64,000 nt of DNA from an uncultured Gammaproteobacteria bacterium (GTDB lineage: Bacteria; Cyanobacteriota; Vampirovibrionia; LMEP-6097), in the NCBI GenBank assembly GCA_964512985.1, contig CAZELI010000002.1, positions 11,252 to 75,251 on the forward strand, read 5' to 3'. The notes below the pieces were generated by a model that was given only the letters and a program-made list of their open reading frames with translations, had not been told where the DNA came from and searched no databases. A program made the translations under genes and the position numbers. This document shows positions 13,996 through 62,071 of this stretch, one piece after another; within the stretch, counting starts at the first letter, position 1, and the number at the start of each line of letters is the position of its first letter.

Positions 13996-14020
13996 ATTAG
14001 GCAACTTTTTTCTTGGTATG
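13996..14020. repeat. left copy of a 25 bp imperfect direct repeat (24/25)
   Basis: attaggcaacttttttcttggtatg matches attaggtaacttttttcttggtatg at 16158-16182. This copy covers the 3' end of the antitoxin gene. Confidence 0.7.
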
Positions 14021-14308
14021 AAGAAGTTTACTAATAAGCTTGGGTGCCCTCTGAATACAAATTAGATATGAAGCAACACTGTGATCTGGAGAATTCACTC
14101 CCTGTTCCCATTTCCTGAGTGTCTCTAATGAGAAGCCAAAAGTTGTAGAAAAAGCCTGCTGAGTCATCTTAAGTGATCTACGGATTTTTTTTACATCAAT
14201 ACCTTTTCTTACGGTTCTTACAGAGCTTGGGTTGGCAAGAGCTTCTTCAATAGACTCTATTAGTTCTTCACCTAAGGATTTTTCTTGTTTTATCTTTTTG
14301 GTTGACAT
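13997..14308 (-). CDS. XRE/NadS-type helix-turn-helix antitoxin
   Basis: 103 aa with the HTH segment IRRSLKMTQQAFSTTFGFSLETLRKWEQG. It lies 2 nt downstream of the toxin ORF. Confidence 0.75.
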   Translation of the reverse strand: MSTKKIKQEKSLGEELIESIEEALANPSSVRTVRKGIDVKKIRRSLKMTQQAFSTTFGFSLETLRKWEQGVNSPDHSVASYLICIQRAPKLISKLLHTKKKVA

Positions 14309-14310
14309 AA

Positions 14311-14646
14311 TTATTCTTTAAATTGTTTAATTAATTTAGGGATTAGTTTCTTGAGTTGATTTCTTTCCGCATCAGATATATTTTCTTTTTTAGTTTTCTC
14401 GTATGTCCCTATCATTATAATTAAAAGTCCTTTTGAGTAATGATATAGTATCCTTAATCCCCCACTTTTACCTCTATGACTATGTTGAGATTGCCATCGA
14501 AGTTTCCTAACACCACCAGTTCCGCTTATAATTTTTCCTGCGTCAGGATATTGCATTAGGTAGTCATATAGATTCTCTAAATCTCCAAGACTAAGTACAT
14601 CACTTGAATCCTTTATGAATTTAGCTGTGGTTTTAATAGTAATCAT
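14311..14646 (-). CDS. RelE/HigB-2-like type II toxin
   Basis: 111 aa. GGVRKLRW...GKSGGLRILYHY is the motif typical of HigB-2/DUF1044-type toxins. Toxin-first order as in hig systems. Confidence 0.7.
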   Translation of the reverse strand: MITIKTTAKFIKDSSDVLSLGDLENLYDYLMQYPDAGKIISGTGGVRKLRWQSQHSHRGKSGGLRILYHYSKGLLIIMIGTYEKTKKENISDAERNQLKKLIPKLIKQFKE

Positions 14647-24863: not shown

Positions 24864-25986
24864 ATGTCCGATCTTTCTGAACAAACCTATGATTTAAATG
24901 AACTTAAGCTTCGTTACTCTTCACTAAAGGAGTATCTTTGACCAAGAAGAGGTCAAAAAAGAGATAGCAGATTTAGAAGCTGAGATGTCTGCGCCGGGGT
25001 TTTGGGATGATACCAATGCTGCACAAGCCAAATCACAAACTCTTGCACAAAAGAAAAATCAATTAGGACAATTTCAAAGTTGGAACAAGCGTCTACAAGA
25101 TATCTTGGATATGGAAGAGTTTCAATCCTCTTCTTCTGATAATGAAGAGAAGCTGCAATATCAAGCAATGATTTTAGATGAGTATTTGTCTTTAAGTAAA
25201 GAATTTAAGGTTTTTGAATTTCAAAAAATGATGTCAGGTGACTATGATAAGTCTGATGCCATAGTTTCTATTAACGCAGGTGCCGGTGGTACGGACGCGC
25301 AGGACTGGGCGGAAATGCTGCTTCGGATGTATACTCGTTGGGCAGAGAATTACCGAAGTTATACTGTTGAATTGTTAGAACGTTCTGATGGAGAGGAAGC
25401 TGGGATTAAATCAGCTACTATAAAGGTGACTGGTCCTTATGCTTATGGATATTTAAGTGCAGAGAAAGGTGTGCATCGTTTAGTACGTAAATCTCCGTTT
25501 AAATCTTCTGCTGACTCTAGGCAAACGAGCTTTGCTGGTTTAGAAGTTACGCCAGTAGTAGCTGATATGTCTAAGATCATTGAGCTTGAGGAAAAAGATC
25601 TTGAGATAGATACAATGCGTTCTGGTGGTGCTGGTGGACAAAACGTTAATAAAGTAGAAACGGCAGTGCGTGTTAAACATATACCAAGCGGCATAGTGGT
25701 GAAATGTACTCAGCAGCGTAGTCAGATGCAGAATAAAGCTAGTGCTTTAGACCTTATTCGTTCCAAGCTACTTGCAATTAAAGAAGCTGAGCAAAAAGCC
25801 AAAATTATTGAGCTTAAAGGGGAATCGGTATCTGCTTCTTGGGGAAACGCTATAAGATCCTATGTTCTAGATGAAGGTAGGGTGAAAGATGTTCGTACTA
25901 AATATGAGACTCGTGATGTGGAATCTGTTCTAAATGGCGATATTGATGCTTTTATAGAGGCATATTTAAGACAAGAAGCGAAGTAA
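24864..25986 (+). CDS. prfB: peptide chain release factor 2, requires programmed +1 frameshift at 24936-24942
   Basis: ATG at 24864 opens a 25-codon frame ending ...AAG GAG TAT CTT TGA C. The +1 frame continues [24 protein letters not shown] into the long ORF, which carries [17 protein letters not shown] (GGQ). An SD-like AGGAG lies upstream of CTT TGA C. Confidence 0.9.
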
Positions 25987-26021: not shown

Positions 26022-26114
26022 AATAAAATGAGTAACTATTTAGATACTTAACTGAACCTTAACTTACTTATGTTTATCTATGTCTAAGCATGGTAAGGCC
26101 TTCTCAGCTTCATC

Positions 26115-26576: not shown

Positions 26577-27440
26577 TTATATCTCATAACCTTTCATTAG
26601 TATTTTAAGTTTTTGTAATACCTTCATATGTAACTGTGAAGCTCGTGATTCAGAGACTCCCAGTACTTCACCAATCTCTCTAAATGTAAGCTTTTGATAA
26701 TGATATAAGGCTACTACTATTCTCTCTCTTGGATTGAGTGAGTCTATTGCTTTAGCTAATTTATCTTTTAATATATTCTGATCAGTGTATTCTTCTTGGC
26801 TTTGATCTTCAGAAGCAAGGTTATCTACTAAGGCAACTTTAGATTCTTCAAAAGGTCTAGTAGCTTCTGTTGAATCTAATGAGAAAATAAGTGCACTAGC
26901 TTCAGTCTTGATCTGTCTTAAATCTTCGGAGTCTATATTAAGAGCTGTTTTAACTTCAGTATCATTAGGAGCCCTACCGAATTGTCTTTCAAGCTTGGCT
27001 ACTGCTTCATTAAAGCGTTTAACCCTTGTTCTACCTGTTCTACTTAGGAAGTCTCTTGATCTTAAGAAGTCAAGAATCTCTCCTCTTACTCTATTAATCG
27101 CAAAAGTTTCAAAGGAGCATTTTTGCTGAGGATTAAATCTATCTACAGCTTCTATTAAGCCAATAGTACCGTAACCTAGTAAATCTTCTCTATCAAAGTC
27201 TGCTGTTTCGATATATGGAAAACGACCAATGACCCAATTAACAATATAGGCATAGCGTCTAATAAGTTGCTCTCTAATTTGGCCAGGTTTGTTTTGAGTG
27301 GTGTAGCGATTCCAGATGCGCATAGACTCCTCTCTGTCGCGCACATTAGCGGGGGCAATCTGAGCAAGAGTCTGAGAGTCTACTGGACTCTTCCTTGCTG
27401 AAGCTATTATTGGATCGTTGTCTATGGTTTTTTTCATCAT
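26577..27440 (-). CDS. fliA: sigma-70 family sigma factor of the FliA/sigma-28 type
   Basis: Region 2 (GYGTIGLIEAVDRFNPQQKCSFETFAINRVRGEILDFLR) and region 4.2 HTH (LTFREIGEVLGVSESRASQLHMKVLQKLK). Confidence 0.8.
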   Translation of the reverse strand: MMKKTIDNDPIIASARKSPVDSQTLAQIAPANVRDREESMRIWNRYTTQNKPGQIREQLIRRYAYIVNWVIGRFPYIETADFDREDLLGYGTIGLIEAVDRFNPQQKCSFETFAINRVRGEILDFLRSRDFLSRTGRTRVKRFNEAVAKLERQFGRAPNDTEVKTALNIDSEDLRQIKTEASALIFSLDSTEATRPFEESKVALVDNLASEDQSQEEYTDQNILKDKLAKAIDSLNPRERIVVALYHYQKLTFREIGEVLGVSESRASQLHMKVLQKLKILMKGYEI

Positions 27441-33201: not shown

Positions 33202-33618
33202 TTACATGTTGCCACTGGAAAGAAATTCATCTGGGGTCATTACTGGAAGTTTAGACAATTTAAAGTCTTTTTTGTTACGAGTAATGATGCAATCTACTTT
33301 TCCTCTTAAAGCGGTAAAATATTGAACAGCATCTTCAAAATCCTTAAATTCTGAGTTTAAAGCTAAGTCAATTTCTTCATTATTGGAAGCAATAATATCA
33401 ATGATTGATCTTAATTTAGTCAAGTTAGCCTTAACTTGTTTTGGAGGCGCTTGTTGAGATAGAAAATAATTAACATTAGTAAAAACTACTGCAGAAGAAA
33501 ATGCTTTTAATCTTTCTCTATAGGCAAGTTCTAAAATTTTAGCGGAAGATTCATAAAATGATTTTCTAGCCAAGAAAAAATCCAAAATTACATCAGAATC
33601 AATAAAAACTTTTCTCAT
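33202..33618 (-). CDS. vapC: PIN-domain toxin (VapC-like)
   Basis: 138 aa with an N-terminal FIDSDVILDF acidic motif and a C-terminal ITRNKKDF. It overlaps the upstream antitoxin ORF by 1 nt. Confidence 0.8.
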   Translation of the reverse strand: MRKVFIDSDVILDFFLARKSFYESSAKILELAYRERLKAFSSAVVFTNVNYFLSQQAPPKQVKANLTKLRSIIDIIASNNEEIDLALNSEFKDFEDAVQYFTALRGKVDCIITRNKKDFKLSKLPVMTPDEFLSSGNM

Positions 33619-38671: not shown

Positions 38672-39921
38672 TATTTCAAAATCTCTTCCGCTACTAATCT
38701 TGCAGTATTGTATCCGCTAAGCTTACTCTTTAATTCAGACAAATCAGTTTTAATTTTCTGGTAATAAGCACTATAAGCTCCGTTCTTTTCAAACCAAGAC
38801 TCTGTTTCTGTTACAAAGTTTTTAACGTTAGCCTCATACTGTAAAAATTCTTTAATTATATACTTACCTGCAATAATATTAGCTAAGCCAGCCATAGTGA
38901 TAGTTCTGAAACATAGATAGAGAAGGTAATTGAATAAATTAGACCTGTAACTAAGGAAGTAAGGAGTAGTATAAAGTGCGGCTTCTAGTGTTACTGTTCC
39001 TGAGCAAAGCCAGAGTGCATCAGCGGCTGAGAGTAATTTATGATTAGAACTGAGCATATCTTGTGATTCTAATATTTCGATATGATGACTTTGTTTTCCT
39101 TCAAGTGCCATATTTAAAGGTGTTTTAAGCCCACATTGCTCTAGAAGTGATTTACTTATCGTTGGAGCTTTAGCTAGGATAAATCTAAAATTAATTTCTG
39201 GGTTTCTTTTAATTAACTGCTCTGATGCTTGAATCATTAGTGGAAGCATTTCTTTGATTTCCGCTTTGCGACTGCCAGGAAATAATCCTATTAATGTTTG
39301 AGTGGCTGAGTGGCTGGGTGCTTGGGTGACTGTATTGATTGATAGCCCTCTTCTATATTGGATTTCACCAAATTGCCTCAGAAATTCTTCTTTATTGATT
39401 GGTTTAGCAAGCGAGTCTAAGACTGGGTTTCCTACGTATTTGTATGGAATGCCAGATTTCTGATAGAGCTTTTCTTCTAAGGGTAAAGTACAAAGAACTT
39501 TATCTATATATTTCTTGATGTTATTGATACGCCAAGGTCTAGATGCCCAGATTTGGGGTGCGATAAATTCTATGATTTTAATTTCAGAAGATTGTTTTTT
39601 AATTGCTTGAGCGAGTTGTAAATTAAATCCACCATAATCTACAAGTAAGACTATATCTGGCTTCCAGTTTATAATTTCTGTCGCTATTTCTTGTTTCAGT
39701 GAAAGTATGGTAGAGATATTGGCGATAACTTCACTGATACCAGAGAAACCATAATCTCGGTAATCTTTAATTACTTTCACTCCTAGTTCTTCTAGTATCT
39801 CTGAGCCAAAGGCTCTAATCTCTGCTTCTGGACAGAGTTTGAAGATTTCTATTACAACTCTAGAAGCATGACTCTCGCCGCTTAACTCCCCGCATGAAAT
39901 AAATACTTTTGGTTTAGTCAT
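38671..39921 (-). CDS. lpxB: lipid-A-disaccharide synthase
   Basis: 416 aa with an N-terminal ISCGELSGESHASRVV motif and GT19 family architecture. It contains an octamer-repeat insertion (VTQAPSHSATQT). Confidence 0.85.
   Translation of the reverse strand: MTKPKVFISCGELSGESHASRVVIEIFKLCPEAEIRAFGSEILEELGVKVIKDYRDYGFSGISEVIANISTILSLKQEIATEIINWKPDIVLLVDYGGFNLQLAQAIKKQSSEIKIIEFIAPQIWASRPWRINNIKKYIDKVLCTLPLEEKLYQKSGIPYKYVGNPVLDSLAKPINKEEFLRQFGEIQYRRGLSINTVTQAPSHSATQTLIGLFPGSRKAEIKEMLPLMIQASEQLIKRNPEINFRFILAKAPTISKSLLEQCGLKTPLNMALEGKQSHHIEILESQDMLSSNHKLLSAADALWLCSGTVTLEAALYTTPYFLSYRSNLFNYLLYLCFRTITMAGLANIIAGKYIIKEFLQYEANVKNFVTETESWFEKNGAYSAYYQKIKTDLSELKSKLSGYNTARLVAEEILK
39299..39331. repeat. single-arm octamer-repeat element inside lpxB
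   Basis: tgagtggc tgagtggc tgggtgct tgggtgac t. Read on the gene strand it encodes VTQAPSHSATQT. Confidence 0.6.
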
Positions 39922-44217: not shown

Positions 44218-44751
44218 CTAATTCAGTAATAATGCTCTTAAGTTCTTTAATTTAGCTTTAAGGCTTGAGTCTATTACTTTATTGGCCATCTGAATTTTAA
44301 TACCTGCAATTAAAGATTCATCTATCGTATTATTGATCTCGATTTTTTTCTTAAGACCAGCTTCTAAGCTAGCTCTTATATCCTCTAGTTCATGATCTTG
44401 AAGTACTGATGCTGAGCTAACTTCAGCGAGTTCTATATTGGCTCTGGATAAATAAATCTGTTTATAATTATCAGCAAGAAGTGGCACTAAAGCAATTCTA
44501 CGTTTTTCAAGTAAAACTAATAATGTATTTAAAACTTCTTTCTGTACTTTATCTTTAAAAATCTTGTTAAGTAATTGCTGTTTAACATCGCGACCGTATT
44601 GTGGATTAGCTAAGAAACTTGTTAACTCCTGAGAGCCATTGAATGTATCCTTAACTAGAATAAGATCTTCTAATACTGTTTCACCTTCTCTTAGCTCAGC
44701 AAGAGCCTCTGCGTACTTTTTAGCGATTAAATTGTCTTTTTGGCTTTGCAT
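44218..44751 (-). CDS. atpH: F-type ATP synthase delta (OSCP) subunit
   Basis: 177 aa with an IAKKYAEALAEL start and an OSCP-like C-terminus. It follows the b subunit gene. Confidence 0.8.
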   Translation of the reverse strand: MQSQKDNLIAKKYAEALAELREGETVLEDLILVKDTFNGSQELTSFLANPQYGRDVKQQLLNKIFKDKVQKEVLNTLLVLLEKRRIALVPLLADNYKQIYLSRANIELAEVSSASVLQDHELEDIRASLEAGLKKKIEINNTIDESLIAGIKIQMANKVIDSSLKAKLKNLRALLLN

Positions 44752-44769
44752 TATTTTTAAGTTAGTGTT

Positions 44770-45264
44770 TTATTTTATTTCGGCTAAATCTTGTTTTAAT
44801 TTGGACTTAATTAGAGCATCAACTTCTGATTTCTGTAATCGTAATGCTTTCTCTGTTTCTGCTAAGGCTGCATTTGCTATTTCTTTCTTGATGCTATCTA
44901 TGGCAAGTGTTTTTTGCATCTCGATTTCTTTAGCAGCGCTTAGGTTCATCTTGTCGATTTCTAATCTAGCTTCTTCCATTACTTTATATCCAAGCTTCTC
45001 AGCAGTATCCTTAGCTGTGATAACAATTCTCTCAGCCTCAAGCTTAGTCTTCTCTATTTCTTTCTCTATTTCCTGTAGTTTTAGTTCGGCAAGCTCACGT
45101 GCTTCTTTAGCTGCTGCAATTTCTCTTTCTAATTCTTGCTTGCGTTTGCTTTGGGATTCTGGTAAAAACTTGCATAATACATAAGCTACTAGACTAAAAG
45201 CCACTGCAAAATTCAGTATGTTACTGTCAAGTATTAGTTTAAATAAATTAGTTTCTTCGTGCAT
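44770..45264 (-). CDS. atpF: F-type ATP synthase b subunit
   Basis: 164 aa with a single N-terminal TM helix followed by a long charged coiled coil. Position is between b-prime and delta. Confidence 0.7.
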   Translation of the reverse strand: MHEETNLFKLILDSNILNFAVAFSLVAYVLCKFLPESQSKRKQELEREIAAAKEARELAELKLQEIEKEIEKTKLEAERIVITAKDTAEKLGYKVMEEARLEIDKMNLSAAKEIEMQKTLAIDSIKKEIANAALAETEKALRLQKSEVDALIKSKLKQDLAEIK

Positions 45265-45726
45265 TTAAGATGTAAGTGCTTCTTTAGCTCTGGGTCTTTG
45301 AATTTCACCTAATAATTTATCGACTGAGCTGCTAACTACTTCTGCTATAAGATTATCAATATTCGATCTAATCTTGTCTGACTCTCTATTCAATCCTTCT
45401 AGACTAGTATTTAACCTATCTTGAAGCTTAATCCTATTATCATCAAGAAATTTTTGCTTGTTGACATTGGCTACTGTTAAAGCTTCGGAGACTAAACTAT
45501 GAGCCTGCTCTTTTGCTTTAGTAAGAATATTACTAGGGTTCTTAGTTAGAATTTCATCTTGAATTTGCTTTTGAAGAGACTTACTCTTCTGAAGGTTTTC
45601 TGCAATGAAATTTTCTCGCTCATTAATCACTCTGGCTAATGGATCAAAGAAGCAAAGCTTCATCAAACCCAGAAATACAATGAAGCTGAGTGTGAATAAT
45701 ACTGCGGTAAAGTCTAAATTAACCAT
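45265..45726 (-). CDS. atpG: F-type ATP synthase b-prime subunit
   Basis: 153 aa with an N-terminal TM helix then PLARVINERENFIAENL, typical of b/b-prime. Position is between c and b. Confidence 0.7.
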   Translation of the reverse strand: MVNLDFTAVLFTLSFIVFLGLMKLCFFDPLARVINERENFIAENLQKSKSLQKQIQDEILTKNPSNILTKAKEQAHSLVSEALTVANVNKQKFLDDNRIKLQDRLNTSLEGLNRESDKIRSNIDNLIAEVVSSSVDKLLGEIQRPRAKEALTS

Positions 45727-45731
45727 AATAA

Positions 45732-45799
45732 AGTGTCTAAGTGTCTGAGTGTCTGGGTGGATATGTAGCAGGCACTCACAACCCAGTCACTCAGACACT
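45732..45799. repeat. complete octamer-repeat palindromic element between atpE and the b-prime gene
   Basis: agtgtcta agtgtctg agtgtctg ggtgg - loop - cactcaca acccagtc actcagac act. The arms are largely complementary (about 17 of 19 in the best register, by eye). Confidence 0.8.
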
Positions 45800-45806
45800 G
45801 CTTAAT

Positions 45807-46043
45807 TTATCCTATTTTGTAAAATAACAAAATAGACATTAGCCAAGCAAGAATACCAAGGGCTTCCGACATACCTGCAAAAATAATTGCATTAGTAAAT
45901 AAAGAACCTGTATGTTCTGGTTGTCTTGCTGCACCTTCTAACATTTTACCAGCTACATTTCCTACTCCTAGAGCTGGTCCAGTAACTCCTAAAGCTGCAA
46001 TTCCAGTACCTATTGCTAAACCTAATGTATCTAATCCTTCCAT
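45807..46043 (-). CDS. atpE: F-type ATP synthase c subunit
   Basis: 78 aa hairpin protein with a GAARQPE loop and a carboxylate in the second helix (MSEALGI). Confidence 0.9.
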   Translation of the reverse strand: MEGLDTLGLAIGTGIAALGVTGPALGVGNVAGKMLEGAARQPEHTGSLFTNAIIFAGMSEALGILAWLMSILLFYKIG

Positions 46044-46147
46044 TGATAATTTTCTCCTCGTTGCGATTATATCAAAATACCTAAAATCAGCAAGGAAATT
46101 TGTTCTGCCTTAACTAAATCATAACTTTGATTTAGTTAGATGTACTC

Positions 46148-46504
46148 ATGAATTCATTTAGTCAACAAGGATTAGATTCTATGTTTAAGGCTCAGGGTTA
46201 CGGTAGCATGCCGCTGCCACCTGGTTTACCTGATGGACAGAAGCAATTATATGGTCACATTAGTGGCGGTAATCAAGTCTCTGGTGCGACTTTTGGCGAT
46301 ACAATCAGTCACATGTTGAATCAAGCCAACGCTACTTTGGGAAAACCAGAGCAATTAACTATTGAAGCCGTTAAAACTGGCAAGGTTGACATACATGAAG
46401 TTATGATCGCCTTAGGTAAGTCTGGAGTAGCATTTAAGCTAATTACAGCAGTAACTCAAAAAATAGTTGGAGCATTTGATAAGTTAAGTAGTATGCAAGT
46501 TTAA
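46148..46504 (+). CDS. fliE: flagellar hook-basal body protein FliE
   Basis: 118 aa with C-terminal HEVMIALGKSGVAFKLITAVTQKIVGAFDKLSSMQV, matching the FliE C-terminal pattern ending in MQV. Confidence 0.75.
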   Translation: MNSFSQQGLDSMFKAQGYGSMPLPPGLPDGQKQLYGHISGGNQVSGATFGDTISHMLNQANATLGKPEQLTIEAVKTGKVDIHEVMIALGKSGVAFKLITAVTQKIVGAFDKLSSMQV

Positions 46505-46636
46505 TCTTATATAAGTAAGGTGCAATACTTGGTAAATAACATATCTTTAATTTATTCTGCTTCCTATGAGTTAATAAGGGGAATAAAATCCCTAGGCTTT
46601 TGTAACAAGGAAGCTGGAGAATAAACGCGCAAAATC

Positions 46637-48373
46637 ATGGCAGGCGAGGTCACAACAGGACAAGATTTAGATTTAGGTACAGGTGGAATAGCTGGCCCTA
46701 AAACCGCTGGTGTGCAGGGATTTTTTCAAGATATTTTTACAGATCCACAAAAACGTATATATGCAATTATTGCAGGTGTTGTTCTTTTGGCATTGTTTAG
46801 TTTTATGATTTTTTCTGTACCTAAATCAGATGAGAATAAAGGTAAATTAGTTAACTTAGTTCAAGAAACAGATCAAGCTAGAGCATTTGAAATAGTTGCC
46901 AAACTTAAGTCAGTAAACATCGACGCTAAAGTTGGTCCAGGTGAGAGACCGGGCGACTACACAGTGCAAGTTTATGAGAAAGCCGTAGAAAGTTCTTACT
47001 TAGCATTGGCTAGAACTAATTTATTGCAAGATGATGATTACGGTTTGTTTGATTCTAATGATTGGGCATCGAGTGATTATGACAAACGCATCAAGCTATC
47101 ACGTGCTATTAATGGTGATCTTTCAAGAATTCTCTCACGTATGGATGGACTTAAGTCCGCTATTGTTAGGGTTAACATCCCTGAACAACAAATATTTACT
47201 GAGTTACAGTCAGCAACAACAGCAACTGTACAGATTGAGTTATTAAATGAAGGTGATGAGTTAACTAAGTCTCAAATCAAAAGTATTGTAAATTTACTTA
47301 GAGGTTATGTTCCTAATCTTGATAAAGAGAAGATTTCTATCGTAGATACTCAAGGACGTAACTATAATATTTTTAAAGAAGATGATGAATCTGACACTGA
47401 GAACTATATTGATGAAGTAGAAAGAGTTAATAAGCTCATTAAAGAGAGAGTAGCTAAATATTTAGATGTAGTTTTAGGTCCTAAAAATTATGAAGTAAGT
47501 ATCAGTGCTTCAGTTAGTCGCGAGAAAGTAGAACAACAAGAAACTTTATATAAAGAAGGTGCAGTTGGTTCAAGACATACTGATTCAGAGGTACTAGTCG
47601 CTGGTTCTAATCCTAATGTGGCTGGACCAGGCGGTGGCGGTAATAGTAAAGATTATAGTTCTCAATCTGTGAATGAAACATTGCTTCCAAGTTTTGAACA
47701 GAAGCAAGTAACTTATTTACCAGGTCGCGTTACTAAAGTAACAGTAGCACTTGCAGTAGATAAAACTATACCAACTATGATCTCACTATCTCAATTACGT
47801 GAGAGTGTTGCTGCGGTGATTGGACCAGAAGCTACAGCTGAAGATGTGAAGCTTACTATTATTGATATGAATGCAATGAATGCTAATGCTGGTGCTATAG
47901 CTGTCGCTAAACCTACTTTCATTCAGCATATAAGTAATTTCTTCCGTGGTGGTATTTGGAGTGTCATCATGAAGATCTTTACTATAATCGCTATCATTAT
48001 CGGTTTACTATTAGTGGCAATTATAAGTCTAAATTTCTTAAGTGCAGCTGCTAATAAGAATTATACGGAGGTTGATCCAAGCTTAGCTAATGAGTTTGGT
48101 CAAGTGATGAATGATGAAGCTGGTGGAGTAGATTATGGTGAAGCTGCAGCTTTAGCTCAACAAGAAGCGCTCCTGAAAGAAATGATGGGAGAGTCTTTTG
48201 AACCGACTGCAATACCAAAGGGACAAGCTAGTTCTTACTCAAGTGAGAATCCAGTAGAGCAAGAAGATAAAATGCAGTTTGATAATTTATTGAATAATTT
48301 TCAGTCAGTGGCTAGTAGCAAGCCAGATATACTGGCGCGCAAAATACAAATGTGGCTGGAAGAAGATTCTTAA
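46637..48373 (+). CDS. fliF: flagellar MS-ring protein FliF
   Basis: 578 aa with an N-terminal TM helix, the LSRILSRMDGLKSAIVRVNIPEQQIF (YscJ/FliF) motif, a second TM helix near residue 440 and a C-terminal cytoplasmic tail. Confidence 0.85.
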   Translation: MAGEVTTGQDLDLGTGGIAGPKTAGVQGFFQDIFTDPQKRIYAIIAGVVLLALFSFMIFSVPKSDENKGKLVNLVQETDQARAFEIVAKLKSVNIDAKVGPGERPGDYTVQVYEKAVESSYLALARTNLLQDDDYGLFDSNDWASSDYDKRIKLSRAINGDLSRILSRMDGLKSAIVRVNIPEQQIFTELQSATTATVQIELLNEGDELTKSQIKSIVNLLRGYVPNLDKEKISIVDTQGRNYNIFKEDDESDTENYIDEVERVNKLIKERVAKYLDVVLGPKNYEVSISASVSREKVEQQETLYKEGAVGSRHTDSEVLVAGSNPNVAGPGGGGNSKDYSSQSVNETLLPSFEQKQVTYLPGRVTKVTVALAVDKTIPTMISLSQLRESVAAVIGPEATAEDVKLTIIDMNAMNANAGAIAVAKPTFIQHISNFFRGGIWSVIMKIFTIIAIIIGLLLVAIISLNFLSAAANKNYTEVDPSLANEFGQVMNDEAGGVDYGEAAALAQQEALLKEMMGESFEPTAIPKGQASSYSSENPVEQEDKMQFDNLLNNFQSVASSKPDILARKIQMWLEEDS

Positions 48374-48402
48374 AATGAAAAGTGAGAGGAGTAGGGTTAT
48401 AA

Positions 48403-48777
48403 ATGAAATTAGAAAGAAAATTAAAATCCTTAGCACTAATTCTTAGATCGTTACCTCCTTCAATTCAGAAAGCGATTTTTGAACAATTACCATTACCCCT
48501 GGTACAACGTATTAGTGATGTGGACTTAACTATAGATGAAACCTTATCTCAAGAAGATTGGGATTATTTCGCTCAATCTTGGCCTGAGTTCTATAAGCTA
48601 ATAGAGAATGTTAGGCATGAATCTAAATTAGAGAGGAGTCATGAATATCTCGAATCTGAAAGACCTAAAGTGAGAGAGTATATTGAGTATCGTTTAAATA
48701 AACGCAATAATAGACCTAATCTTTCTCATGCCATTGCCAGAATAATTGATGAAATGGTCTTGGAGTTTAAGTCGTAG
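48403..48777 (+). CDS. short helical protein in the fliG position; possible FliG N-terminal-domain-only protein
   Basis: 124 aa at the synteny position between fliF and fliH. It has a helical repeat pattern (LALILRSLPPSIQKAIFEQLPLPLVQRIS) resembling FliG-N. There is no middle or C-terminal torque domain. Confidence 0.4.
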   Translation: MKLERKLKSLALILRSLPPSIQKAIFEQLPLPLVQRISDVDLTIDETLSQEDWDYFAQSWPEFYKLIENVRHESKLERSHEYLESERPKVREYIEYRLNKRNNRPNLSHAIARIIDEMVLEFKS

Positions 48778-50126
48778 TGATTATCAAGCGAAAAATTCTC
48801 AAGTCTATTTATGGTGAGGATATTCTTCCCTTAGATTTGAAATTAGTTACTAAACTACAACCGAAGCAATTTGATAGTAATTCTTCTCCGCATCAAGCAC
48901 AAGAGCAATCTATAGATGCATTGGCTGAAGATCTAGTACAAGCGAGGGTAGATGAGTTATATGCTCAGAAAGAAGCTGAAGTAGCTGAGATCGAAAAGCA
49001 AGCTCAAGCAGATATTCAGAAGGCACTAGATGATTCTAAGGTTCTTGCGCAGCAGATCTTAGATGATGCGCAGCTTCAAGCTAATAATTTAACTAATCAG
49101 GCTTTAGCCGTGATTGAGAAGCAGAAACAAGAGATTAGTAAGCTAGCTAAAACTGAATCTGAGCGAGGTTTCAAGGAGGGCATGGCAAAAGCCGATATTT
49201 ATATCCGCGACTTGATGAAAATGCTTGCTAGTTTTAATAATGCCAAAAAAGATATTTTATTAGAAGTGAAGAATGAAATTGCTAGCCTTGCAATCCATGT
49301 AGTAAGGCAAATATTCAAAAGAGAAGTACAAATTAATCCTGAACTGCTGGAAGAGCAAATACTTAAAGCAGTAAACCTTGTTTCTGATGGTAAAGGAATC
49401 ATTCAGGTTTATCTTAATCCAATAGATCAGGCTAAGGCAGTTTTTCTAGAACAGAATTTGTCTAAACTTATTGATGAGTCTATAAAGTTAATATTCTTAA
49501 AGGACGAAACTGTCGATGAAGGTTCTTGTATTATCAATACTAAAGGTGGCAGCTTAGATGTAAGTTTTTCAAGCCAAATTGAGCTAATAAAAGTTGCCTT
49601 TGAAATGTATTTAGGGCATAAAATTGAAGAGATCCCTGAACCTAATGAGTTGAGTGGGTCCGATCAAGCAGAGACAGAATCAATGCGAGTAGATCCAGAT
49701 AAAATTATAAAAACTAAATTCGGCCCGATTAAAGAGCCATCAGATGAAGACCTTGAAATGATAGAACTTGAAGCGGATGAGTTTGATGATCTTATTATTG
49801 ATGATGATTTAGATGCCTTACTTAAAGAAGTAATGATGGAAGATGGTGCTGATATTAAAGATGAAGATGTTATAAAAACCGATGATGATATACCCCTTTC
49901 GGAAATTGAAGATGAAAATTATAATAAGAATGATAAAAATGAGGAGGAGATAACATTGAGTTACGATGATGATGACGATAGTTTAGACCTCGATGAGGAT
50001 AAAGACGATTTAGCTGACGATGATGATTTAGATCTTGATATGGATGAGTTTGATGAACTTGCTGATGATCCAGAAGCTGGTGGAGATGATGATTCTGGCA
50101 TGGATGAGCGTTTCCCAGAGTACTAA
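48777..50126 (+). CDS. fliH: FliH-like flagellar export regulator with a long acidic C-terminal extension
   Basis: An N-terminal coiled coil (AQKEAEVAEIEKQAQADIQKALDD) is followed by the FliH/NtpE-like core (ERGFKEGMAKA...IASLAIHVVRQIFKREV) and about 165 aa of D/E-rich tail. GTG start overlapping the previous stop. Confidence 0.65.
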   Translation: MIIKRKILKSIYGEDILPLDLKLVTKLQPKQFDSNSSPHQAQEQSIDALAEDLVQARVDELYAQKEAEVAEIEKQAQADIQKALDDSKVLAQQILDDAQLQANNLTNQALAVIEKQKQEISKLAKTESERGFKEGMAKADIYIRDLMKMLASFNNAKKDILLEVKNEIASLAIHVVRQIFKREVQINPELLEEQILKAVNLVSDGKGIIQVYLNPIDQAKAVFLEQNLSKLIDESIKLIFLKDETVDEGSCIINTKGGSLDVSFSSQIELIKVAFEMYLGHKIEEIPEPNELSGSDQAETESMRVDPDKIIKTKFGPIKEPSDEDLEMIELEADEFDDLIIDDDLDALLKEVMMEDGADIKDEDVIKTDDDIPLSEIEDENYNKNDKNEEEITLSYDDDDDSLDLDEDKDDLADDDDLDLDMDEFDELADDPEAGGDDDSGMDERFPEY

Positions 50127-50704
50127 AACACTTGAGTAACTGTTTCTACTATATCTGGCACTTCAGCAAGTAGTGCACGTTCTACTCCCATCTTCATAGT
50201 CATAAGTGCGCTAGGACAAGTACCACAAGCGCCAACCATGCGTAAGCGTACATCAGTTCCTACTAAGTCTACAAATTCAATATTACCGCCATCAGAAACT
50301 AAAGCAGGACGAATCTTGTCTAGTACCGCTTCTATGCGCGCTCTAGTGTCACCTTCAGCACCAGGCTTGACTTCAGCAATAGCTGGTTTATTAGCTTCAG
50401 CCCAACTACGCATATCATCGATAGAAGTCTTGATGATGTTCTTAATTTCCATGTGAACATCTTTCCAATTAATATGTTCTTCTTTGTCAACAGTAACGAA
50501 GTTTGACATGATAAATACTTTGATTACACCTTCAATGCCAAACAAGCTTTCTGCAAGTTTATTACCAGCTGTTTGGGCTTCCTTGATACTTAGGTAACTC
50601 AAGGATTGAGGGTAAGGGTATAGAGTCTCACTTGAGATAAATTTAAGCGAGTTAGGATTAGGGGTATATTCAGCGCGAACTGTTACTTCTAGAGAGTTGG
50701 TCAT
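50123..50704 (-). CDS. nfuA: Nfu-type Fe-S cluster scaffold (Nfu_N + NifU C-terminal domain)
   Basis: TPNPNSLKF N-domain and GGNIEFVDL...GACGTCPSALMTMKMGVERAL CxxC motif. Confidence 0.8.
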   Translation of the reverse strand: MTNSLEVTVRAEYTPNPNSLKFISSETLYPYPQSLSYLSIKEAQTAGNKLAESLFGIEGVIKVFIMSNFVTVDKEEHINWKDVHMEIKNIIKTSIDDMRSWAEANKPAIAEVKPGAEGDTRARIEAVLDKIRPALVSDGGNIEFVDLVGTDVRLRMVGACGTCPSALMTMKMGVERALLAEVPDIVETVTQVF

Positions 50705-52352: not shown

Positions 52353-55040
52353 ATGAACGAATATAACCCTAAATTAATTGAAGCTAAATGGCAAAAACTC
52401 TGGGAAGAGTCTGGTATCTATAAGTTTGACGATAAACCTGATAATGCTAAGCGTTTTTATTCACTAGTAATGTTTCCTTATCCTTCTGGGAATTTGCATA
52501 TGGGGCATATGCGAGTTTATACAGTTTCGGATTTGATTTCCCGTTATAAAACGATGCAAGGTTATAAGGTACTTAATCCTATGGGCTTTGATGCTTTTGG
52601 TTTGCCAGCAGAGAACGCTGCTATCGAGCGTGGTGTACATCCAGGCAAGTGGACTGACTCAAACATCGCTTATATGCGTGATGAGCAGCTTAAACGCATG
52701 GGTACTAGCTATGACTGGTCGCGTGAGGTGATTTCTTGTCACGAAGATTACTATAAATGGACTCAATATTTATTTCTCAAGTTATACGAGAAGGGATTAG
52801 CCTATCAGAAAGAAGCGCCAGTGAACTGGTGTCCAGAATGTAACACGGTACTTGCTAATGAGCAGGTAGAAGATGGCATGTGCTGGCGCCATACTAATAC
52901 TCCCGTAAATAAACGCATGATGAAGCAATGGTTCTTGCGCATCACTGATTATGCAGAAGAATTACTTAATGACCTAGATAAGTTAGAACACTGGCCTGAA
53001 AGCGTTAAGACTATGCAACGTAATTGGATAGGGCGTAGTGTCGGTGCTGAAATTGATTTTGAAATTTGTCAAAGTGGCGGAGTGTCTGAGTGTCTGAGCG
53101 ACAGAGTAACTGACCCAGCCACCCAGTCACCCAGCCACTCAATTACAGTTTATACTACTAGACCTGATACGGTTTATGGAGTGACTTATATGGTGCTTGC
53201 ACCAGAACATAAATTAGTTAAAGGACTTACTACTAAGGATCGCCTTGCAGAAGTAGAAACATATATTAAAGAGTCTTCTAGTAAGTCTGAGATAGAGCGT
53301 ACTGCTGAAGGTCGCAAGAAGACTGGAGTCTTTACTGGCGCTTATTGTATTAATCCTTATACTGAAGAAAAAATTCCAGTATGGATAGCAGATTATGCTT
53401 TAGTAGATTACGGTACTGGTGCGGTGATGGCAGTGCCTGCACATGATGATAGAGATTGGGAGTTTGCAAAGGAATTTGGATTGCCGGTAAGGGAGGTAAT
53501 TAGAGTGACCGAGTGTCCGAGTGTCCGAGTGTCTGAAAGTTCAGTCACTCAGTCACCCAGCCACTCAGTCACTAAAAATGCTTACACTGGTCCTGGAACA
53601 ATGATCAACAGCCAACAGTTTAATGGTCTGGATAATGAAACTGCTAAGCAGAAGATCGTAAAATATGGCTCAGAGCAAGGCTTTGCGCGAGAGACTGTTA
53701 AATATAGATTACGCGATTGGTTGATTAGTCGTCAGAGATATTGGGGTTGTCCGATTCCATTAGTAGAAGCTGAATCAGGCGAGATAGTAGCTGTCCCTTA
53801 TGAATCGCTTCCAGTGAAGCTTCCATTAGATATAGACTTTAGCCTTGCTAAGTCTGAAGGTGGTTCTATATTGGCTAATAAACCTGATTGGTATAATGTC
53901 ACTCTTCCTGATGGACGTAAGGCTAAGCGCATCACTGATACTATGGATACTTTCATGTGTTCATCATGGTATTTCTTGCGTTATCCTGATGCTCATAATT
54001 TAGAGAAGCCATTTGCTAAAGATCAAGTGTTTCCTGTTGATCAATATGTGGGTGGTATTGAACATGCGATCTTACATCTCTTGTATTCTAGGTTTTTTAC
54101 TAAGGCATTACGTGATTGTGGGATGCTAGATTTCTCGGAACCTTTTACTAGATTGCTTTCTCAAGGGATGGTAGTTAAGTATTCAGAGAAAGAAAACAAG
54201 ATAGTGAAGATGTCTAAATCTCGCGGGAATGTTGTGGGTACTAATGAGTTCTTTGATGAATATGGTGCAGATGCAGCTAGATTGTTTATATTATTCGCTG
54301 CTCCAGTAGAAGCTGAAGTAGAGTGGGTTGATGAAGGAGCCCAAGGGCAATATAGATTTATTAATAGAGTTTGGAGGATGTATGCTGCGTTGAGTTCGGC
54401 ATTTAATACGACCTCATCTAGTGAAGAAATCGACTTTAATGCTCTTTCTCCAGCTAATCAAGAGATTCTCCGTATTTTTCATTTTACGCTTAAGTCTATT
54501 ACTGAGGATCTTAGTCCTGAGCGTAATGGCTTTAATACTGCGATTGCTCGTATGTTTGAGTTTGTGAATGCAATGTACAAGTATATGAACGCAAAGGGCT
54601 TTGATGTAGGTAAAGGTATATTAAATGATGAAGATAGTTTAGTAGTGAAACATGTTCTGGTGAATTTTATTAAAACACTTGCACCGTTCACGCCACACTT
54701 AGCAGAGGAACTATGGCAAATATATAGTGTCCGATTGACTGAGAGTCTGAGTGACCGGAACCCAGTCACCCAGTCACCTAGTCACTTAGTCACTAATTCT
54801 GTACACTTGCAACGTTGGCCTATATATAATCCTAATTATTTAGAATCTAAGACTGTTAATTTAGTATTGCAAATCAAAGGTAAAAAAGTAGATGTTATAG
54901 AAATAGCTAAAGACCTCTCAGAGAAAGACCTTGAGCAATTAGCTATGGATAATGAGAAGATGAAGAAACGTTTAGAAGGATTGGATATTAAGAAGGTTAT
55001 TATAGTACCAAATAAATTAGTTAATGTGGTAGCAGGTTAA
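52353..55040 (+). CDS. leuS: leucyl-tRNA synthetase carrying three in-frame repeat-element insertions
   Basis: 895 aa with HMGH ([11 protein letters not shown]) and KMSKS motifs plus a CP1 editing domain (TTRPDT). Confidence 0.95.
53079..53140. repeat. octamer-repeat palindromic element inside leuS, copy 1
   Basis: ggagtgtc tgagtgtc tgagcgac agagtaac tgacccag ccacccag tcacccag ccactc. It encodes [21 protein letters not shown] just before the conserved TVYTTRPDT. Confidence 0.8.
53503..53573. repeat. octamer-repeat palindromic element inside leuS, copy 2
   Basis: gagtgacc gagtgtcc gagtgtcc gagtgtct gaaagttca gtcactca gtcaccca gccactca gtcact. It encodes [23 protein letters not shown]. Confidence 0.8.
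54726..54794. repeat. octamer-repeat palindromic element inside leuS, copy 3
   Basis: agtgtccgattgactgagagtctgagtgaccggaacccagtcacccagtcacctagtcacttagtcact encodes [23 protein letters not shown]. Confidence 0.8.
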
Positions 55041-55043
55041 TTT

Positions 55044-55997
55044 ATGTTCATGAGAATTTTGAAAACAGTATTTAAGGTTTATATATTAATAGTTTTGCTG
55101 AGTACTCAAGTCTCTGCTAGAACTCTAACTACCCATCCTGTAACTAAAACTGAAACTACAGCTACAGTAATAAGTCCTTCTACTATTGTTTCTTTTGATC
55201 TAGATGAAACTTTAGTTGAATCTAATCATCTAACTAAAACTGAATTAAAGAAGGCTAAAGATCTAGGCTATGAGATTAAGACTACGGTTAATGGTCAGGA
55301 CTATGTGTTACGTCCAGGCGCCATGGAACTATTAGAATTCGCTAAGTCACAGGGTTTTACGTTGATGCTCTTTACTCATAATCTTCATAGTTATGCAGAA
55401 GATATATTAGAAAGTTCAGGCATGGCTGAGTATTTTACTAATATCAAATCGCATGAAGATGTAATTAAACCTTATAATGTTGATTTTACGAAGTACCCTA
55501 ATCATCGTAATAGAACTTATCCACAAAAATCCCCGTTAGAGGTCTATACTGTTGATTTATATAAAGCTTTTTTTGTGAATGGTTTTGCACGTATGCAAGG
55601 TGAGCACAATATTCAGAGCTATATACCATCTATCAATGCTGCCAAATATCCACCTCTCTATGGAGCAAGAGTTCATATTGATAACAGTAAAGAACATGTT
55701 GATAAACCTCTGGATTTTGTTGGCATATTAGTCGAACCTTTCTGTGCTAATAAAATAGAACCCCAAGACGCTAATGGTCACTATCTTTGGGTAGAGAAAT
55801 TAAAATCAGATTTAATATACCTCAAAGAGCATAATTGGGTAGAGCTTTATAAGCTTAAATACAAGAAAGAACCTATTGTTGATGAAGTCGAAATTCAATC
55901 TCTAGAACAACTTCCTAAATATCTTCTGAATTATTCCGCTGTCTCTATCCTTGGTCAATGCACCACTGCCAATGATTTGGATCTGTGCGTTAGCTAA
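55044..55997 (+). CDS. secreted HAD-superfamily phosphatase of the FCP1/NIF-like type
   Basis: Signal peptide and the DxDxT motif in FDLDETLVES. The last 96 nt overlap the flgH 3' end, so the true stop and C-terminus are uncertain. Confidence 0.55.
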   Translation: MFMRILKTVFKVYILIVLLSTQVSARTLTTHPVTKTETTATVISPSTIVSFDLDETLVESNHLTKTELKKAKDLGYEIKTTVNGQDYVLRPGAMELLEFAKSQGFTLMLFTHNLHSYAEDILESSGMAEYFTNIKSHEDVIKPYNVDFTKYPNHRNRTYPQKSPLEVYTVDLYKAFFVNGFARMQGEHNIQSYIPSINAAKYPPLYGARVHIDNSKEHVDKPLDFVGILVEPFCANKIEPQDANGHYLWVEKLKSDLIYLKEHNWVELYKLKYKKEPIVDEVEIQSLEQLPKYLLNYSAVSILGQCTTANDLDLCVS

Positions 55998-56564
55998 TTT
56001 ATAGCTTGGTACTTCGTTGTTGGAGTCTATGTCTTTAGGGAAGATGATGCCTCTAACATAAAGACTTTTAGTCTCGCCTTCCATGAGTATTTGTCTAGAA
56101 CCTTCTACTATCATATTGCCGCTTTCTGGGTCTATCTCTACAACTAAGCAACTCACCATTGCTGTAAATCGTTCTTGATTGTTTACTGATATATCTCTAA
56201 GATTTCTTCTAGAATAATTCACAGGTAATGCAAAATTAGTAAGCATATTAGCTACGTCATTAGTGTCAGGTGTAAGTGAACTGGTAACGGTCATAGCCAT
56301 CTGGAAAATTAAATTAGCATCGCTACGGACATCATTATCTAAAGTAACTTCTGCATTCTTAATAGATTCAACGTTTTCTACTATCTTGACGGTTACTACA
56401 TCACCGACATTCTTAGCGATGAAAGCTTCTATGTAACCTCTTGGGGCTCTGCTTATAGAATTGTTTCTAATGCCACCGCCATCTAATAGCGATACCGATT
56501 CTACTGGACTTAATAGTAACCAGCAGTTAACTAGCACAAATAAATTAAAGAGTGTTTTGCGCAC
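55902..56564 (-). CDS. flgH: flagellar L-ring lipoprotein FlgH
   Basis: 220 aa with the VGDVVTVKIVENVES motif, IVEGSRQILMEGETKSLYVRGIIFPKDIDSNNEVPSYKLANAQIQIIGSG and a C-terminal GIIQKIFRKLF, matching the FlgH pattern. Confidence 0.8.
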   Translation of the reverse strand: MRKTLFNLFVLVNCWLLLSPVESVSLLDGGGIRNNSISRAPRGYIEAFIAKNVGDVVTVKIVENVESIKNAEVTLDNDVRSDANLIFQMAMTVTSSLTPDTNDVANMLTNFALPVNYSRRNLRDISVNNQERFTAMVSCLVVEIDPESGNMIVEGSRQILMEGETKSLYVRGIIFPKDIDSNNEVPSYKLANAQIQIIGSGALTKDRDSGIIQKIFRKLF

Positions 56565-61906: not shown

Positions 61907-62071
61907 TATCAGACTTATTTAGCTCTTACAATCACCGAGCAAGTTTCCTTGCTTGGGCTTACTAATATAGCAGCTTAGACTTAAATCTGTCTCTAAGAAA
62001 TATTTAACTTGCTCTTCTTGATAATTTAGCTGGTAGCTAATTTTTGTTAAGTACTTAACCATTCTTTAACC

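Follow-up and report, generated by a model that had tools for sequence, protein, structure and literature searches.

Introduction

What stands in for FliG in a flagellar gene cluster that has no fliG between fliF and fliH? FliG is, to our knowledge, a universal and invariant core protein of the flagellum, the one that receives torque. In a 64 kb stretch of DNA (the window, whose numbering is used for all gene coordinates) from an organism assigned to the Caenarcaniphilales, an order of Vampirovibrionia (= Melainabacteria), the non-photosynthetic sister class of cyanobacteria, a short flagellar cluster at 46148-50126 has, in the position of fliG, an open reading frame (ORF) of 124 amino acids (aa), which we call ORF124. 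ORF124 belongs to an unnamed protein family, specific to Vampirovibrionia, that replaces fliG between fliF and fliH, and it represents the form of this family found in the Caenarcaniphilales. On balance, we favor the explanation that this family contributes one FliG-type armadillo (ARM) domain, in the fliG slot, to a class-wide, flagellum-derived basal-body or export module that is likely to be non-rotating.

Results

A Conserved Family Occupies the fliG Position throughout Vampirovibrionia

ORF124 is a functional gene that is strongly constrained. It is preceded by an AGGAG ribosome-binding site, and its stop codon overlaps the GTG start codon of fliH (TAGTG). When the sequences were compared with those of two close relatives, the ratio of nonsynonymous to synonymous substitution rates (dN/dS) was 0.024-0.038 for ORF124, 0.046-0.057 for fliF and 0.08-0.11 for fliH, indicating purifying selection. 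The very low dN/dS led us to reject decay of the kind seen in endosymbionts. The analogy that a preliminary description of this DNA had drawn, with endosymbionts that retain only basal bodies, is in fact not apt, because these genes are subject to purifying selection and are carried by bacteria that live freely or in the gut.

Homologues of ORF124 formed 48 clusters, all of 119-129 aa, and where the sources were named, they were Caenarcaniphilales, Melainabacteria or Vampirovibrionia. The gene order atpH-atpF-atpG-atpE, followed by the divergent fliE-fliF-ORF12x-fliH(long) and then by nfu, was kept down to 49% identity. ORF124 had no Pfam or NCBIfam match at E ≤ 0.01, and its AlphaFold2 (AF2) model was all-helical, with seven short helices and a predicted local distance difference test (pLDDT) score of 79.

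The extent of the family was established in a scan of bacterial genomes, one for each species, for which aligned FliF sequences from Vampirovibrionia served as the query. The scan returned 80 fliF loci, all of them from Vampirovibrionia, a class that fliF homologues span at 23-100% identity. The gene after fliF in each locus was classed by local profile searches. In the Caenarcaniphilales it encodes an ORF124-like protein of 119-134 aa and in the 2-02-FULL-35-15 group an ORF124-like protein of 130-150 aa, followed in both cases by a gene for a long FliH. In the Gastranaerophilales it encodes, at all loci but one (L047), a relative of 314-357 aa, followed by genes for a short FliH and then FlhA. 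There was one exception, a 2-02-FULL-35-15 genome in which rod genes, fliE and fliF are followed by methyltransferase-like or unrelated genes rather than by ORF124 and fliH (L005 and L037, as against L032-L039). In the isolate nzgw191, fliF was seen on two contigs (L035 and L038). Thus, the family gene lies between fliF and fliH in the window and in nearly all complete loci of the 80 genomes. The preliminary description had missed that the feature is a class-wide family, present in three lineages of Vampirovibrionia.

The longer form, represented by a Gastranaerophilales protein of 317 aa, is matched by ORF124 over residues 187-310, i.e., its C-terminal third, with an hhalign probability of 83% (E = 9e-6). 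This form had 287 database relatives; among the 120 of these that were listed, each was of about 317 aa with no Pfam domain and, where named, was called "hypothetical." Its AF2 model had a pLDDT of 84, and the extra N-terminal domain was helical; relatives of that domain were not detectable. Comparison of the model with the PDB, using Foldseek, gave no significant match. The AF2 model and the Foldseek result together ruled out the possibility that the 317 aa form is a canonical three-domain FliG.

The Probable Relationship of ORF124 to FliG Is Confined to One Domain

FliG has a three-domain architecture (FliG_N, FliG_M and FliG_C, ~330 aa) that ORF124, a single-domain protein, does not share. 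None of the FliG models (PF14842, PF14841, PF01706, NCBIfam) matched ORF124 at E ≤ 1. The FliM-binding EHPQR motif of FliG_M was absent from ORF124 and from the family consensus on direct reading, and the torque helix of FliG_C that faces MotA was also absent, ORF124 ending after an ARM-like domain and a few helices. The claim that the ORF has neither the middle nor the C-terminal, torque-generating domain of FliG is therefore correct. Since both the EHPQR-containing middle domain and the torque domain are missing, ORF124 is not FliG in the functional sense.

The preliminary description had also suggested that the ORF corresponds, at best, to the FliF-binding N-terminal domain of FliG (FliG-N). 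In profile and structure comparisons, FliG was repeatedly the best match. When the ORF124 model was compared with the PDB using Foldseek, the best three matches were all FliG chains (E 3.2-4.7), and the top one, 5tdy_D (E 3.2), is the FliG-N component of a FliF-C:FliG-N complex. When ORF124 family members were searched against Pfam, FliG_N was the most frequent sub-threshold family (6/28); against the FliG models themselves, the members gave sub-threshold scores only, the best being 0.0032 for FliG_N and 7.7e-4 for FliG_M. A more diverse family alignment, covering all three lineages, was used for a profile search of the PDB and for a second Pfam tally. With this profile, FliG accounted for the top two matches (E 0.27 and 0.32) and for four of the top eight (E 0.27-1.8), its share of the PDB being 16 of 177,635 distinct sequences. 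Sub-threshold Pfam matches of the members of the diverse alignment (n = 32) were to MgtE_N (11), FliG_N (5), FliG_M (3) and FliG_C (2), which belong to one superfamily.

An alignment of profiles by hhalign, using a small FliG_N alignment, gave a probability of 65% (E = 6e-5), the corresponding value for FliG_M being 32%. In this comparison residues 10-56 of ORF124 were aligned with residues 10-63 of FliG, and the N-terminal ARM-type helical motif of ORF124, KSLALILRSLPP..QKAIFEQLP, fell in register with that segment. The helical domain at the N-terminus of the 317 aa form, used as a control in the same tests, gave no FliG signal. Sequence and profile searches of the PDB with ORF124 returned nothing relevant, and an hhalign comparison of the family with the single FliG of E. 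coli was not significant, with the best local match in the FliG_N region.

Several results count against a relationship with FliG-N. None of the similarity tests was significant alone, the E-value of the match to 5tdy_D is weak, and hhalign of an alignment of ORF124 sequences only against FliG_N gave a probability of just 8%. When 1.84 billion representative proteins were searched exhaustively with a HMMER profile, only 6 short relatives were recovered, and no sequence bridging the family to FliG. In addition, the 317 aa relatives have their FliG-like domain at the C-terminal end, whereas FliG binds FliF through its N-terminal domain. The similarity of ORF124 to FliG-N is thus weak and sub-threshold throughout, yet consistent across methods, with hhalign, the PDB profile search and the Foldseek match to 5tdy converging on it. 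From these comparisons we conclude, with moderate confidence, that a single ARM domain of the FliG type, most similar to FliG-N, is probably present in the family.

If the FliG matches were noise arising from helical composition, ORF124 would be unrelated to FliG and might be, like FliJ, FliT or FlgN, a small helical protein with a chaperone role in export or a regulatory one. That all of the FliG scores are sub-threshold, and that ORF124 is small, all-helical and translationally coupled to fliH, would be in keeping with this. However, FliG was the best match in four independent methods, whereas the helical control domain from the same family gave no such match. ORF124 is also modeled with seven short helices and not with the two-helix coiled coil of FliJ, and it had no Pfam match to FliJ, FliT, FliS or FlgN, so that neither a FliJ-type coiled coil nor an export chaperone is supported. 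We regard this explanation as quite improbable.

The FliF Tail That Binds FliG-N in Canonical Flagella Is Conserved

In canonical flagella, the C-terminal tail of FliF co-folds with FliG-N, as in the complexes from Thermotoga (5TDY) and Helicobacter (5WUJ). By analogy with these two structures, we take residues 547-578 of the window FliF to be the equivalent of the FliG-binding region. This tail resembles that of E. coli FliF (...DPRVVALVIRQWINNDHE) and is conserved in relatives as ...KPDILARKIQMWLEEDS, while Trp-573 (W573) was invariant in an alignment of 15 Vampirovibrionia sequences. Conservation of the tail, which is a prerequisite for such binding rather than proof of it, implies the persistence of a partner resembling FliG-N. 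The most evident candidate is ORF124, which would make the contact.

The Form of FliH Varies with the Form of Its Neighbor

An unusual feature of the window FliH, already remarked upon in the preliminary description, is an extension of 165 residues (285-449) that is rich in acidic residues (43% Asp + Glu; 7% Lys + Arg). FliH proteins that accompany the short, ORF124-like form are 361-975 aa in overall length, with an acidic tail of highly variable length, and those of the Caenarcaniphilales nearly always end with D[E/D/P]R[F/Y]P[E/D]Y. By contrast, the FliH proteins that accompany the 317 aa form in the Gastranaerophilales are 228-309 aa in length and have no tail. Long FliH tails therefore co-occur with the short ORF124 form, and short FliH proteins with the 317 aa form.

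This covariation of FliH with its partner suggests that the end peptide is perhaps a tethered docking motif. It also suggests that the FliH tail may do the job of the extra N-terminal domain of the Gastranaerophilales protein, e.g., by anchoring the FliH-ATPase complex at the base where there is no FliM/FliN ring. In some relatives FliH reaches 669-975 aa (L003, 10380-13106; L021, 10173-13100; L001, 10369-12378), and these long tails contain internally repeated acidic segments such as EEIPLELEAVTE. Growth of the tail looks like rapid tandem duplication in which the last 6-7 residues have remained fixed.

Canonical fliG Is Not Found Near This Type of fliF

As queries against the window and all fetched related loci, we used the E. 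coli reference proteins of 38 genes for flagella and chemotaxis. In the window only the FliF, FliA and FlgH queries gave matches, and beyond the cluster, fliA and flgH these queries revealed no further flagellar gene in its 64 kb. In the related loci, the queries that matched were FliE, FliF, FliH, FliI, FlhA, FlgB, FlgC, FlgE, FlgG, FlgH, FliA and CheY. Neither the window nor 1.35 Mb of related loci contained a match to FliG, FliM, FliN, MotA, MotB, FlgK, FlgL or FliC. The E. coli FliG query, which gave nothing over the 1.35 Mb surrounding the fliF genes of this type, did detect the FliG of a Chloroflexi bacterium, the positive control, at 4.8e-57; the Chloroflexi control locus (L095) has the canonical order flgC-fliE-fliF-fliG-fliH-fliI-fliJ. 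We also looked for components of an injectisome (SctC, SctD, SctF, SctI, or SctJ in place of FliF), and no injectisome family was matched. The flagellar character of the cluster is evident from a full-length FliF with the flagellar C-terminal domain and from FliE and FlgH, together with FlgB, FlgC, FlgF and FlgG in relatives.

A FliG split between two genes has to be considered here. ORF124 would then represent the separate FliF-binding N-terminal domain, and a protein with the middle plus C-terminal domains of FliG, encoded elsewhere, would complete the rotor. Such an arrangement would account for the finding that the best similarity of ORF124 is to FliG_N, in register, and for conservation of the FliF tail. 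However, neither the window nor the 1.35 Mb of related loci yielded an ORF resembling FliG_M or FliG_C, and the longer Gastranaerophilales relatives add an unrelated N-terminal helical domain rather than the missing FliG domains. It also counts against this idea that no split FliG is known to have been described, and we consider it highly improbable.

Published Gene Lists Suggest a Second Flagellar Set

Most Melainabacteria have been reported to carry a subset of flagellar genes that is unable to build a working flagellum (Soo 2014, PMC4040986). In Table S5 of that study, Ca. Caenarcanum has FlhA, FlhB, FliI, FliP and FliR, and Gastranaerophilus has rod genes, FliE, FlhA/B, FliI, FliJ and FliP/R; for neither does the table contain FliG, FliM, FliN, MotA/B, FlgE or FliC. 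In the genome ACD20, fliF, an unnamed gene, fliH, flhA and fliI occur in that order, and fliG is not among the 13 flagellar genes common to four genomes (Di Rienzi 2013, PMC3787301).

The motile Vampirovibrio chlorellavorus has two fliE-fliF sets, only one of which has fliG-fliH-fliI adjoining (Soo 2015, PMC4451040, Table S3). Its canonical set has the order flgB-flgC-fliE-fliF-fliG-fliH-fliI, with fliN-fliM-fliL-motB-motA and other genes in addition, while the second set comprises a flgF-flgG-flgB-?-flgC-?-fliE-fliF cluster and a separate fliH-flhA pair (PMC4451040). The layout of the second set is close to that of the 2-02-FULL-35-15 and Gastranaerophilales loci. We infer that the module in the window belongs to a class-wide second set, which is kept in genomes without motility genes and duplicated beside a normal flagellum in genomes that have them. 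The non-motile relatives appear to keep the second set only. No description of a second or C-ring-less (i.e., cytoplasmic ring-less) flagellar system in Vampirovibrionia was found in the searchable literature.

The preliminary description had offered two readings of the cluster, a remodeled basal-body module or a heavily scattered flagellar regulon. According to the latter, the organism would have an ordinary rotating flagellum, with full-length fliG, fliM/N and motAB at other loci, and ORF124 would be a lineage-specific accessory. Flagellar genes are indeed dispersed in all of these genomes, the conserved FliF tail could serve a canonical FliG equally well, and full gene sets and motility have been reported for some Melainabacteria (PMC3787301; PMC4451040). 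A scattered regulon also retains some weight because the presence of fliA and flgH in the window is compatible with it, and because the DNA searched consisted of the window and related loci.

These points must be set against a remodeled module, as must some others. Not only do fliA and flgH also fit a working, scattered regulon, but canonical fliG, fliM/N and motAB may lie elsewhere in the genome. Annotation-based absences are unreliable: Table S5 of PMC4040986 omits FliF and FliH, which, judged by the gene numbering, are present between fliE and flhA, so that absences from that table are limited by annotation. Moreover, the two sets of V. chlorellavorus are deduced from a published gene list and not from sequences examined here.

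On the other side, the canonical fliG of V. chlorellavorus is next to a fliF that belongs with it and is separate from the second fliE-fliF cluster, and fliG was near none of the 80 fliF loci of the type studied here. ORF124 is constrained at least as strongly as fliF, the FliG-type ARM signal lies exactly in the fliG slot, and FliG is not annotated in Ca. Caenarcanum. The remodeled basal-body module fits better than the scattered regulon, given that the fliF-X-fliH arrangement is kept in three lineages and that V. chlorellavorus has two clusters. An ordinary but dispersed flagellum is, in our view, unlikely, and the genome represented by the window would have no canonical fliG.

A Shared Upstream Motif, fliA and flgH

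A direct repeat just upstream of fliE, CTTAAC-N6-ATAAC, is a candidate promoter or regulator site. The 17-nucleotide (nt) motif CTTAAC-N6-WTAAC had three matches in the window, compared with 0.69 expected, and each was just upstream of an ORF on the + strand. The same motif lies ahead of fliE in nearly all Caenarcaniphilales loci (e.g., L001, 3788-3804, - strand, with equivalent sites in L015, L020, L025-L028 and L030). In relatives it also precedes a conserved helical ORF of ~201-224 aa that has no Pfam domain and no homologue in the window. The motif may mark a regulon, possible secreted substrates included. The 150 aa and 163 aa ORFs downstream of the other two matches (Table 1) are, on the strength of the shared motif, tentatively regarded as co-regulated members. 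A scan for sigma-70 promoters and terminators around the cluster found such sites to be no more frequent than expected by chance.

As described previously, fliA and flgH are singletons in the window. FliA is possibly the regulator of the set, and FlgH is probably part of the same apparatus. The flgH gene has the same relative position in L001 and L002, and it was found in the fliF flanks of five Caenarcaniphilales sources, including the window.

Genes of the Cluster and Other Features of the Window

The coordinates of the features discussed are shown in Table 1. The gene order of the cluster, with a divergent atpE, a convergent nfu and no fliI, was fully borne out. Both the YscJ_FliF domain and the C-terminal domain of FliF scored above the Pfam cutoff. 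FliH has a usual size of 230-300 aa, with a neighboring fliI, and neither feature is found here, fliH adjoining nfu.

Table 1. Coordinates of the Flagellar Cluster and of Other Features in the Window
Feature	Position	Strand	Remarks
fliE	46148-46504	+	PF02049, 4.8e-15; TIGR00205, 52.1 bits (cutoff 30); adaptor between membrane-supramembrane (MS) ring and rod
fliF	46637-48373	+	578 aa; PF01514, 1.1e-33, and PF08345, 4.3e-11; MS-ring protein
FliF C-terminal tail, residues 547-578	48275-48370	+	QFDNLLNNFQSVASSKPDILARKIQMWLEEDS; region that binds FliG-N in canonical flagella
ORF124	48403-48777	+	124 aa; fliG slot; single ARM-type domain, FliG-like only weakly; coupled to fliH
fliH	48777-50126	+	449 aa; PF02108, 7.7e-16, 58.6 bits (cutoff 24.1); NF005198, 2.8e-16
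FliH domain, residues 144-269	49206-49583	+	PF02108
FliH acidic tail, residues 285-449	49629-50123	+	Probably disordered
FliH end motif	50106-50123	+	ERFPEY; conserved C-terminal peptide
atpE	45807-46043	-	Divergent, upstream of fliE; genes for subunits b', b and delta next
nfu	50123-50704	-	Convergent, downstream of fliH
Motif CTTAAC-N6-ATAAC	46109-46125	+	Candidate site; direct TTAAC repeat 11 nt apart; 23 nt before fliE start
ORF of 150 aa	26115-26567	+	Beside fliA; motif at 26047-26063; no Pfam match
ORF of 163 aa	62072-62563	+	Beside dnaA; motif at 62054-62070; no Pfam match
fliA (FliA/WhiG-type sigma-28)	26577-27440	-	TIGR02479, 206.8 bits (cutoff 189.6); singleton, 20 kb upstream of cluster
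flgH (L-ring protein)	55902-56564	-	PF02107, 2.8e-29; singleton, 6 kb downstream of cluster
31-nt octamer element	53116-53146, 53542-53572, 54763-54793	+	Inside leuS
31-nt octamer element	39302-39332	-	Inside lpxB
Octamer-repeat site	45784-45798		Between atpG(b') and atpE

The fragment of an ATP synthase operon that is divergent to fliE (44218-46043, - strand) has the cyanobacterial-type order c, b', b, delta, without an adjacent gene for the a or alpha subunit, and this layout is kept across the Caenarcaniphilales (L001-L004).

The window also contains a 31-nt element made up of about four copies of an octamer (CAGTCACC); it occurs four times at ≤3 mismatches, where none would be expected. 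All four copies are in frame within housekeeping genes, adding peptides such as TQSPSHS. A partly complementary run that precedes at least the second copy in leuS (53517-53594) suggests a hairpin-forming, miniature mobile repeat. The element accounts for a local rise in GC content at 52-54 kb.

The closest public genomes (L011, i.e., CAZKAT010000004.1, and L012, L015, L025, L026 and L028-L031) are titled "uncultured Gammaproteobacteria bacterium," and the titles "Muribaculaceae" and "Clostridiaceae" are attached to some loci of the Gastranaerophilales. Judged by gene content and synteny, all of these genomes belong to Vampirovibrionia, so that the record titles look mislabeled. The FliF encoded on CAZKAT010000004.1 shares 97% identity with that of the window. 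The prfB ORF for release factor 2 (24985-25986, + strand) lacks the usual N-terminal segment at its start, as would fit the well-known programmed +1 frameshift. Finally, ORFs resembling toxin-antitoxin genes occur at 13997-14646 and 33202-33618 (both - strand); judged from their translations alone, they may represent a HigB/RelE-like toxin paired with a helix-turn-helix antitoxin-like protein and a PIN-domain-like protein.

Discussion

The model that we favor for the role of ORF124 is as follows. Beneath the MS ring, ORF124 would bind to the conserved FliF tail in the manner of FliG-N in canonical flagella, and would act there as a static adaptor and not as a rotor. FliH would be made from the same message by translational coupling, and through its long acidic tail, ending in ERFPEY, the FliH-ATPase complex may be held at the base of the structure where a C ring of FliM and FliN is absent. 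This module would be part of a second, class-wide set that comprises the rod, FliE, FliF, FliH, the export gate and the L ring. The second set would persist where motor and filament genes are reportedly absent, and would be present beside the full canonical set in the motile Vampirovibrio. Its most likely product is a basal-body-like structure with a role in export or in the envelope, which would not rotate because the module lacks the parts needed for torque and switching.

A bolder proposal, which we put forward tentatively and with more doubt than confidence, is that Vampirovibrionia have a second, C-ring-less machine in which FliG has been cut down to a one-domain adaptor and FliH has gained a tethering tail. 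This machine, conserved across the class, would comprise the rod and the L ring, FliE, a ring of FliF, the export gate and the FliH-ATPase complex. It would not rotate, would serve as a secretion or envelope device, would outlast the loss of motility and, in motile members, would lie beside a normal flagellum; it would represent an exaptation independent of that which gave rise to the injectisome.

If this is correct, the system would show what stays useful in a flagellar base once rotation has been removed, and it would provide a natural, minimal system for study of the FliF-FliG interface. It could also document another path by which a flagellum evolved into a secretion device, beside that of the injectisome, and the "incomplete flagellar gene sets" of gut and environmental Melainabacteria would be a maintained apparatus rather than a product of decay. 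The analysis also delimits an unnamed protein family and a C-terminal peptide that is conserved among FliH proteins, and each can be put to a direct test.

How does this module compare with known systems? With the FliG-N:FliF-C complexes (5TDY, 5WUJ) it shares the position of the gene, ORF124 lying between fliF and fliH, and the conserved FliF tail, including its tryptophan. It differs from FliG itself in that ORF124 has 124 aa rather than ~330, no FliG_M with EHPQR and no torque helix of FliG_C, and scores below the curated thresholds. In injectisomes, the gene order sctJ-sctK-sctL parallels fliF-fliG-fliH. As ORF124 would be, SctK is a small, helical, cytoplasmic adaptor of a machine that is related to the flagellum but does not rotate, and it is encoded between the gene for an inner ring and that for a stator of the FliH/SctL type. 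However, no sequence similarity between them was found, and the neighbors of ORF124 are of the flagellar type (full-length FliF, FliE and FlgH, with FlgB/C/F/G in relatives). Chlamydia has a partial flagellar set (FliF, a FliH-like protein, FliI and FlhA) without FliE or genes for the rod and L ring. The resemblance lies in the orphan fliF and fliH-like genes without a recognized complete flagellum, and NCBIfam models of chlamydial origin gave weak matches. Nothing like ORF124 occupies the slot in Chlamydia, however, and the similarity is at the level of shared families only.

In known dual flagellar systems (e.g., polar plus lateral), both sets are complete motors with their own fliG, fliM/N and stators. 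V. chlorellavorus resembles them in having two copies of fliE, fliF, fliH, flhA, flhB and fliPQR in the published list (PMC4451040). Its second set differs from theirs in having no fliG, fliM/N or stators.

A further parallel is with Buchnera aphidicola, which has reduced basal bodies that lack filament and stator, have been proposed to act as protein exporters, and retain canonical fliG, fliM and fliN. In both cases a flagellar subset (MS ring, rod and export apparatus) is apparently retained, under selection, without motility genes. Buchnera, however, is an obligate endosymbiont with a decaying genome, whereas the hosts of the Vampirovibrionia module are free-living or gut bacteria; in the latter, moreover, the fliG slot is taken by a remodeled protein, and one motile relative has a full flagellar set in addition to this one.

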